64,000 nt of DNA from Patellaria atrata CBS 101060 (lineage: Eukaryota), in assembly GCA_010093705.1 (NCBI GenBank), contig MU006093.1, forward strand, positions 827,301-891,300. The letters are read 5' to 3'. Positions 20,406 to 20,880 of this stretch are shown here, piece after piece (within the stretch, counting starts at the first letter, position 1; every line of letters begins with the position of its first letter). Under the pieces are notes generated by a model that was not told where the DNA came from, ran no database searches, and was given only the letters and a program-made list of their open reading frames with translations. The translations under genes were made by a program, and so were the position numbers.

Positions 20406-20522
20406 TTAGTTGTAGCCGCCCCGTCCGTCGTCAACCATTGATGATGATTGAGCGAAGATTGCTGAGAAGAGTCTTCCAATGGTGCTGGTTAAAAGCTGGC
20501 TAGCAGTCAAGGCAGCAGACAT
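20406..20522 (-). CDS. Candidate 38-aa micropeptide MSAALTASQLLTSTIGRLFSAIFAQSSSMVDDGRGGYN (an internal ATG would give the 10-aa MVDDGRGGYN)
   Basis: ATG at 20522 to TAA at 20406, in frame. Shares the C-terminal GRGGYN-stop with the upstream 7-aa ORF using different synonymous codons. Confidence 0.6.
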   Translation of the reverse strand: MSAALTASQLLTSTIGRLFSAIFAQSSSMVDDGRGGYN

Positions 20523-20632
20523 CGAGGTAGATATTGTGGTGGGTTGTTTTTGTGTGTGTTTGAAGTTGAAGTGTTGAGGATAAGATCGAATTGATATCGA
20601 TTGAGTGTTGTTTGGTTTGCAGTGGATTGAAT

Positions 20633-20656
20633 TTAGTTATATCCGCCTCGGCCCAT
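20633..20656 (-). CDS. Candidate 7-aa micropeptide MGRGGYN
   Basis: First ATG after the putative start site and a ~185-nt ATG-free, A/C-rich leader. ATG GGC CGA GGC GGA TAT AAC TAA. Confidence 0.6.
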   Translation of the reverse strand: MGRGGYN

Positions 20657-20838
20657 GTAGAATATTGTAGTAATGTAGTTGAGGTTGTTTGGTAGTAAGT
20701 TGATTCTGATTGTTGTAGTTGTTGATAGCAAAGTGAATCTAATGCAACGCTTGAACGCTGGACCGAAAAATGCTAGCAGAAGTATGAAATAGAAAAGAGT
20801 CGAAGATGCTTTAGTAAGTTGTGATGTTGTTGTATGAG

Positions 20839-20880
20839 GAATGAATCCATCTAGGCCGCGAACCTGCGCCGTCTTATATA
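20839..20880 (-). promoter_or_regulatory. Core promoter of the micropeptide unit: TATATAA plus initiator-like TCATTC
   Basis: Minus-strand TATATAA at 20880-20874 and TCATTC at 20844-20839, ~30 nt apart. Confidence 0.55.

Follow-up and report, generated by a model that had tools for sequence, protein, structure and literature searches.

A probable micropeptide gene with a conserved GRGGYN motif beside MSS1 in Patellaria atrata and other filamentous ascomycetes

Insects provide textbook examples of conserved polycistronic micropeptide genes. In one published account (PMC4612599), the gene known as tarsal-less, polished-rice or mille-pattes is described as producing a polycistronic mRNA with four small open reading frames (ORFs), three of which contain an LDPTGLY domain, and the encoded peptides are functionally redundant. 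Here, we describe a locus of comparable layout in a 64,000-nucleotide (nt) stretch of Patellaria atrata CBS 101060 (assembly GCA_010093705.1, contig MU006093.1, positions 827,301 to 891,300 of the forward strand), which is referred to as the window throughout this paper. Two ORFs on its minus strand, ORF1 of 7 codons and ORF2 of 38 codons, end in the same hexapeptide, GRGGYN, directly before the stop codon. The insect and the fungal system share a row of very short ORFs with one common motif, conservation of the motif only, a varying copy number and the lack of a long ORF. They differ in that the motif of the P. atrata locus is GRGGYN and not LDPTGLY, the host is a fungus, the GRGGYN ORFs go down to 7 codons, carry the motif at a free C-terminus and are in some cases split by an intron, and the gene consists elsewhere of one ORF with 2-9 motifs; moreover, the fungal gene is known from its layout in the DNA. 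The analogy with tarsal-less/polished-rice, which had been drawn in the first-pass annotation of this DNA, is thus retained for the proposed manner of working but not for membership of the family, since motif and host differ.

Other known systems resemble the locus in part. Conserved-peptide upstream ORFs that stall the ribosome at their stop codon include the fungal arginine attenuator peptide (arg-2/CPA1) and the MAGDIS hexapeptide of mammalian AdoMetDC. The GRGGYN locus shares with them a tiny ORF that is conserved in amino acids and not in DNA, conserved residues that abut the stop codon, and an ATG-poor leader, but it has no main ORF further 3' in P. atrata or in the lineages with a single ORF, and most copies of the motif in relatives are internal. 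Multi-copy fungal peptide precursors comprise alpha-factor-type pheromones and the Kex2-processed ribosomally synthesized and post-translationally modified peptides (RiPPs) such as ustiloxin. Their tandem short cores with spacers have a counterpart in the multi-motif relatives, whereas the GRGGYN gene is without a signal peptide, KR sites or a nearby tailoring enzyme, and its core is often an ORF of its own; unlike a-factor-type lipopeptide pheromones, the GRGGYN ORFs have no C-terminal CAAX. The C-terminal domain of yeast Npl3 contains RGGY-D-S/G-P repeats, and RGG boxes are substrates of the arginine methyltransferase Hmt1 and ligands of import receptors. The internal form GRGGYN-[TGSA]-P (22 of 58 internal contexts) resembles an RGG-Tyr repeat with Ser/Thr/Gly-Pro after it, whereas the GRGGYN products, which may be as short as 7 residues, have no RNA-binding domain and no Pfam match (five proteins). 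The resemblance to Npl3 points to possible partners, namely an arginine methyltransferase or import receptors, and is to be taken as a lead only.

The locus is very probably a genuine conserved protein-coding gene. With a probability of roughly 0.7, it is read here as an ancient, unannotated micropeptide gene of filamentous ascomycetes in which GRGGYN is the only conserved element of the product, and which is proposed to work as described below. More tentatively, and at slightly less than even odds, GRGGYN may be an ancient bioactive hexa- or heptapeptide that is translated directly, from a gene that flips in evolution between encoding a polyprotein of up to nine copies and giving a polycistronic mRNA whose ORFs have 7 codons and, in some cases, an intron.

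The two copies of the hexapeptide in the window differ at four positions, all of which are third codon positions, without any amino-acid change; by simple arithmetic, four random differences among 18 positions would all fall on third positions with a probability of 15/3060, or 0.5%. Among 53,960 pairs of same-strand stop codons within 400 nt of each other in the window, the GRGGYN pair is the sole pair that shares the six residues before the stop, against a chance expectation of 0.01 such pairs per window in 100 second-order Markov simulations. The layout reported in the first-pass annotation (TATATAA, TCATTC, an ATG-free leader, ORF1, an ATG-free spacer of 110 nt and ORF2) was recovered at the same minus-strand positions, which are listed in Table 1. 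No ATG occurs from 20847 to 20657 (-), and a further ATG at 20850 lies 24 nt 3' of the TATA box and just 5' of the putative initiator. The G content of the leader is 7-11%, having dropped from ~0.41 to 0.07-0.11 over the last 200 nt. The related sequence ACAATAT(T)CTAC precedes both ORF ATGs, and all three in-frame ATGs (20656, 20522 and 20438) have T at -3, both as previously noted; the third is internal to ORF2 and its product would be MVDDGRGGYN.

It was also stated that no long ORF follows, and indeed no conserved ORF was found in the window between ORF2 and the end of MSS1, the convergent neighbour. No canonical GT is present from 20748 to 20520 (-), which rules out that the stop codon of ORF1 is taken out by a GT-AG intron; since there is no GT between ORF1 and ORF2, the two ORFs are not exons of a longer gene in P. 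atrata. In relatives that have introns, splicing yields the same mini-ORFs. Genomic DNA contigs of two sequencing runs span the whole stretch without joints. A programmed frameshift from ORF1 into ORF2 was considered and dropped, as no slippery site could be made out and there is nothing unusual about an open frame of this size in sequence of this kind. The frame of ORF2, which is -1 relative to ORF1, is open for 38 codons 5' of its ATG (from 20636), which is probably meaningless.

The relatives of the locus are 80 metagenome loci anchored on MSS1 (proteins 45-66% identical), which were grouped into 54 lineages by clustering MSS1 at >=90% nucleotide identity; 38 of these lineages have at least 1300 nt of flank. 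Among these 38, the exact GRGGYN motif was found in 26, a variant only (GRSGYNK, twice) in one and a motif split by introns in five, and none was found in six (L042, L048, L050, L053, L055 and L059). The gene is thus present in 32 of 38 lineages when exact, variant and split motifs are taken together, and L001 and L049, whose flanks are shorter, carry it too. In a six-frame scan of the 80 loci, GRGGYN always lies on the strand opposite to MSS1, from a few hundred to ~2600 nt beyond it, and only three chance-like near-matches occur elsewhere in those loci. The motif is kept as a peptide and in synteny beside MSS1. A search for copies near MSS1 orthologues had been proposed as a check in the first-pass annotation, and its outcome is in favour of that annotation. 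Judged by MSS1, some of the loci match Aureobasidium pullulans and A. namibiae almost perfectly (98-99%), and others are related to 'Dothideomycetes sp. NU457' (85-87%) or to Saxophila (72-78%). Many lineages are unplaced, and some of these fall outside the group containing all named Dothideomycetes references. P. atrata itself is without close sequenced kin, because the next-best relative of its MSS1 is only 63% identical.

GRGGYN was found 156 times in 100 unique contexts, in which all four Gly codons are used at every Gly position and all six Arg codons occur (CGN 80, AGR 20), with Tyr as TAC/TAT 91/9 and Asn as AAC/AAT 84/16; these codon statistics are partly circular, as exact matches to the motif were collected. 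With 35 unique M-GRGGYN contexts lined up on their start codon, the third positions of four- to six-fold sites carry 0.08-0.6 bits, and the 45 nt on either side of the motif show compositional bias only. Given that every Gly and Arg codon occurs and that the flanks are unconserved, it is the peptide rather than the DNA that is kept, as had been expected from the synonymous differences between the two copies in the window. When the 5 kb from MSS1 to Hus1 were compared in translation with eight relatives, nothing but the MGRGGYN ORF and an exon of Hus1 proved to be conserved. An identical MGRGGYN heptapeptide ORF is present at the syntenic place in relatives, and a match of 22 nt across the stop codon joins ORF2 of the window to L004. 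Variants are few (GRDGYN, GRGDYN, GRGEYN, SRGAYN and GRSGYN).

There are two fixed positions at which introns break the motif. In L001, L004, L015, L018, L024 and L026, the second ORF has its motif broken behind the GG of the third codon, by introns of 56-62 nt that start with GTAAGC, GTACGT or GTGAGT, contain a CTRAY branch site and end in YAG. The 7-codon ORF is interrupted after its Arg codon in L015, L018, L024 and L026, by introns of 50-60 nt of the form GTATGT...CTGAC...YAG. Splicing in silico restores MGRGGYN-stop and ...DDGRGGYN-stop, and the same search over 548 kb found no split motif on the other strand. After removal of the intron, the second product of L015 reads MFSSAATMFSFASIFSLNANDDGRGGYN-stop, which by sequence is a clear homologue of ORF2 of the window (RLFSAIFAQSSSMVDDGRGGYN). 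L005 shares both intron positions with its two-ORF sister lineages, but its frame is open between the motifs; when spliced, it is a single ORF of 53 residues with a motif at each end.

Based on the arrangement of the motif, separate mini-ORFs ending in the motif are found in 18 lineages including the window (17 further), a single ORF with 2-9 motifs in 14 and one motif with a short tail in three. Single ORFs are exemplified by L009, in which the unit DDE-GRGGYN-GPVNTR is repeated six times with acidic linkers, by a form of 54-55 residues in Aureobasidium and by a Pro/Ser-rich form of 308 residues, and the long proteins of L069-L079 terminate in GRGGYNSSLP. A stop codon directly follows the motif in 34 of 92 distinct peptide contexts (35 of 100 DNA contexts), and the other 58 peptide contexts are internal. 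Terminal copies are preceded by acidic residues (DD/DE), and of the 58 internal contexts, 22 have [TGSA]-P after the motif and 21 have R/K. On a quick MSS1 tree, several switches of architecture are needed, at least three of them on well-supported branches.

The features that surround the ORFs in the window recur in other loci. A TATA-like element lies 155-290 nt 5' of the first motif ATG in 15 of 27 loci (window included), and none was found within 600 nt in four of the 27. In most of these loci, the G content falls from ~0.3 to ~0.1 over the last 200 nt before the first ORF. The 200-nt leaders of 13 mini-ORF lineages contain four ATGs, where dinucleotide shuffles predict 14.7; CAT occurs 93 times in these leaders. 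The spacers, 65-164 nt long in relatives, contain seven ATGs against 10.1 expected; six of the seven come from L041, whose 'spacer' holds further motif ORFs, and one ATG against 6.8 expected is left when L041 is set aside. A pyrimidine is found at -3 of the first ORF in 10 of 13 lineages, and A at -3 of the last motif ORF in 11 of 13.

Table 1. Features of the GRGGYN locus and its surroundings; positions are those of the window unless a lineage is given
Feature	Position	Strand	Remarks
TATA box TATATAA	20874..20880	-	224 nt 5' of ORF1 ATG
Initiator-like TCATTC	20844-20839	-	Sequence read
Presumed 5' leader, G-poor, A/C-rich, ATG-free	20657..20844	-	Begins at TCATTC; transcription start putative
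ORF1, MGRGGYN-stop, 7 codons + TAA	20633..20656	-	ATG GGC CGA GGC GGA TAT AAC TAA
Spacer, 110 nt, no ATG, no GT, 4% G	20523..20632	-	Sequence read
ORF2, MSAALTASQLLTSTIGRLFSAIFAQSSSMVDDGRGGYN-stop, 38 codons, end DDGRGGYN-stop	20406..20522	-	3' codons GGA CGG GGC GGC TAC AAC TAA
Presumed 3' untranslated region	20086..20405	-	Toward MSS1 3' end; putative
MSS1, mitochondrial tRNA-modification GTPase	17957..20085	+	Pfam domains, 100% identity to P. atrata protein; start approximate
TLRKxRxERWR ORF in relatives	L011:12206-12075, L019:5878-5762, L034:8437-8333, L039:5288-5166, L041:2745-2593, L046:5114-4992	-	

From these sequences, we infer transcription, one mRNA for both ORFs, their translation, re-initiation and an action in trans. 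The ORFs are likely to be two cistrons on one mRNA. RNA polymerase II would start shortly 3' of the TATA box, and the G-poor, ATG-free leader of ~190 nt would bring scanning ribosomes to ORF1, which only some of them would translate, its start context being weak (T at -3). Re-initiation after very short upstream ORFs is established, GCN4 being the paradigm. Because ORF1 is only 7 codons long, scanning could be resumed after it, with re-initiation at ORF2 110 nt further on, and other ribosomes would leak past ORF1 straight to ORF2. Both products would terminate in GRGGYN with a free carboxyl end. The initiator Met is removed from proteins whose second residue is Gly, and a bare hexapeptide would thus be released from ORF1. 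The motif would be the working part, a short linear peptide that serves some conserved partner in the cell as ligand or decoy, with the dose set by the number of motif copies (1-9 per locus in relatives). An action in trans is favoured because the motif has persisted in three settings: free heptapeptide, C-terminal tag and internal repeat. Taken by itself, an action in trans through the motif is put at even odds.

The main rival is an action in cis, in which the nascent GRGGYN would stall the ribosome at the stop codon, with a small molecule as a possible trigger, and so control downstream initiation, mRNA decay or read-through into the convergent MSS1. Several observations would suit such a role: in nearly all ORFs the final motif runs directly into the stop codon, the smallest ORF is of heptapeptide size, a further conserved small ORF (TLRKxRxERWR) lies 3' of the mini-ORFs in one clade, and 32 of 38 lineages retain the convergent placement next to MSS1. 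On the other hand, 58 of 92 motif contexts are internal with no stop after them, the L069-L079 proteins continue past their final motif to end in GRGGYNSSLP, and neither the single-ORF lineages with 2-9 motifs nor P. atrata offers a downstream ORF to be regulated, no conserved ORF being present between ORF2 and the end of MSS1 in the latter. Mak16, the other neighbour, is syntenic in relatives as well, so that the linkage to MSS1 need not be functional. We therefore regard regulation in cis as unlikely, though it is the best placed of the alternatives.

It is decidedly less probable that the gene encodes the precursor of a processed, possibly modified and exported peptide of pheromone or RiPP type, in which cuts at acidic or basic flanks would free GRGGYN and the mini-ORFs would give the core directly. 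The repeat-plus-spacer layout of the multi-motif forms, such as that of L009, would fit this scheme, as would the acidic pair before terminal copies and the R or K that follows 21 of 58 internal copies. Against it, no signal peptide was seen by inspection, the ORFs beginning directly with MGRGGYN or with M-A-(A/I)-GRGGYN; inspection likewise found no KR pairs flanking the cores, the residue after the core being T, G, S, A, R or K, and no CAAX box, the ORFs ending in GYN. No tailoring enzyme or transporter is conserved nearby among 122 ORFs of >=130 residues within 6 kb upstream in 19 loci. Only 11 of the 122 neighbour ORFs have a Pfam family, and the families (2-hydroxyacid dehydrogenase, GST, permease, ankyrin, MFS, GT90, Hus1 and Suc_Fer-like) differ between loci, none of them being a known RiPP enzyme.

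The P. atrata locus might, in principle, be a decaying remnant of a gene for a multi-motif disordered RGG protein, broken by a nonsense mutation after the first motif, its ORFs being non-functional. Single-ORF forms do exist in 14 lineages, the linker of ORF2 (RLFSAIF...DD) resembles the first linker of the single-ORF form of L009 (NIFTSALMADDE), and the gene can be lost, as is set out below for L013 and L014. This explanation is nevertheless very improbable, given that 18 lineages, distant ones among them, retain the split form with a separate ATG for each piece, that both copies in P. atrata are intact and differ only by synonymous changes, and that the leader and the spacer are still free of ATG. 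Finally, a conserved DNA or RNA signal (a G-rich binding site or a structured RNA) with incidental reading frames is close to refuted, for although the RNA fold of 20380-20845 is slightly stabler than that of shuffled sequences (z = -1.76, 5/100 shuffles at least as stable), an unremarkable result, all synonymous codons and both Arg codon families are used, start and stop codons are kept, the motif of some lineages is rebuilt only after splicing, the flanks are unconserved and no Rfam family was found in 20000-25200.

Several points weigh against reading the locus as an ancient gene for a trans-acting micropeptide. A stable trans factor would usually be longer than 6-7 residues, and no partner is known for the product. 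The wide taxonomic range of the gene is drawn from metagenome contigs, and the distant loci are without class-level placement. The gene was not found beside MSS1 in six of the 38 lineages, and a segment of ~600 bp that holds the whole GRGGYN gene in L014 (2218-2814) is missing in L013 (~2663). These two are Aureobasidium-like contigs with flanks 91-95% identical, so that presence and absence differ between close relatives; because L013 is without the segment, the gene can evidently be lost. The tree used for the switches of architecture is a quick version, in which L005 is labelled 'poly' though it is a single ORF. The lineages in the ATG and -3 counts are partly related, and their independence is overstated. 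G was found at -3 of ORF1 in both intron-bearing lineages that were read (L015 and L026), so that the pattern of a weak first start context is not general.

Searches for known relatives returned little. ORF2 (38 residues) had 0 phmmer matches among 1.84 billion representative proteins, and a word-index protein search with a reading of 42 residues (ORF2 plus four upstream codons) gave 0 candidates. A relative of 85 residues with six motifs, used as query, gave one weak match in Logan, P0126, which contains three copies of GRGGYN. No Pfam family was above the cut-off for five representative proteins, including the form of 308 residues, and 0 matches were found among the sequences of the PDB. The ESM Atlas gave one cluster, made up of 195 'hypothetical proteins' from ascomycetes, with a score of 0.80, which is a lead only, and no usable match was found for the Aureobasidium-type protein of 55 residues. 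A full-text search of the literature found no description of GRGGYN or RGGYN, or of a polycistronic fungal micropeptide gene.

If it acts in trans, GRGGYN would be, to our knowledge, the shortest product of a conserved ribosomal peptide gene known to do so in a eukaryote. The locus would add a family without a Pfam model that extends across distant ascomycete lineages, ORFs of 7 codons under clear selection at the peptide level, some of them with an intron inside, and a natural series in which a multi-motif protein and an array of mini-ORFs are interconverted. Gene callers miss conserved genes of such a size. What a six-residue RGG-Tyr peptide binds or regulates is now a testable question in tractable fungi such as Aureobasidium pullulans.

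MSS1 is a convergent syntenic anchor outside the GRGGYN unit, with its stop codon at 20083-20085, 320 nt from that of ORF2. Its last exon is tiny, encoding FCVGK-stop after a short intron that follows a K codon (window 19990-20085, +). The antisense of this exon appears in many loci as a conserved minus-strand 'peptide' (Y-[FL]-PTQNL), which could mislead a scan for ORFs. The neighbours in the window are Mak16 (-), MSS1 (+) and Hus1 (-), the last ~4.2 kb 5' of the GRGGYN unit. The order Mak16-MSS1-micro-gene-Hus1 is kept in L011, L019/L022, L039 and L058, with 4.8-8.8 kb between MSS1 and Hus1, and no sequence conservation was found between the window and these intervals. The ~4.2 kb between the micro-gene and Hus1 (window 20900-25100) contain no ORF of >=150 codons and no Rfam match; that this long upstream region stands for elaborate regulation, as was proposed in the first-pass annotation, is a guess. 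A GGAT/GGT microsatellite, gatggatggatggatggatggtggtggtgg, lies just 5' of the promoter at window 21001-21039 (-).

The TLRKxRxERWR ORF mentioned above, a third conserved small ORF of 34-50 codons after the mini-ORFs, occurs in one clade (L011, L019/22, L034/35, L039, L041 and L046) and is absent from the window. Immediately 3' of it, a hydrophobic stretch (THLL...) is conserved in a different frame, and the two together suggest a spliced small membrane protein. Elsewhere in the window, at 53161-57329 (+), ORFs with patatin-like domains are followed by NACHT/NPHP3_N and ankyrin repeats, which corresponds to a fungal NLR-type layout.

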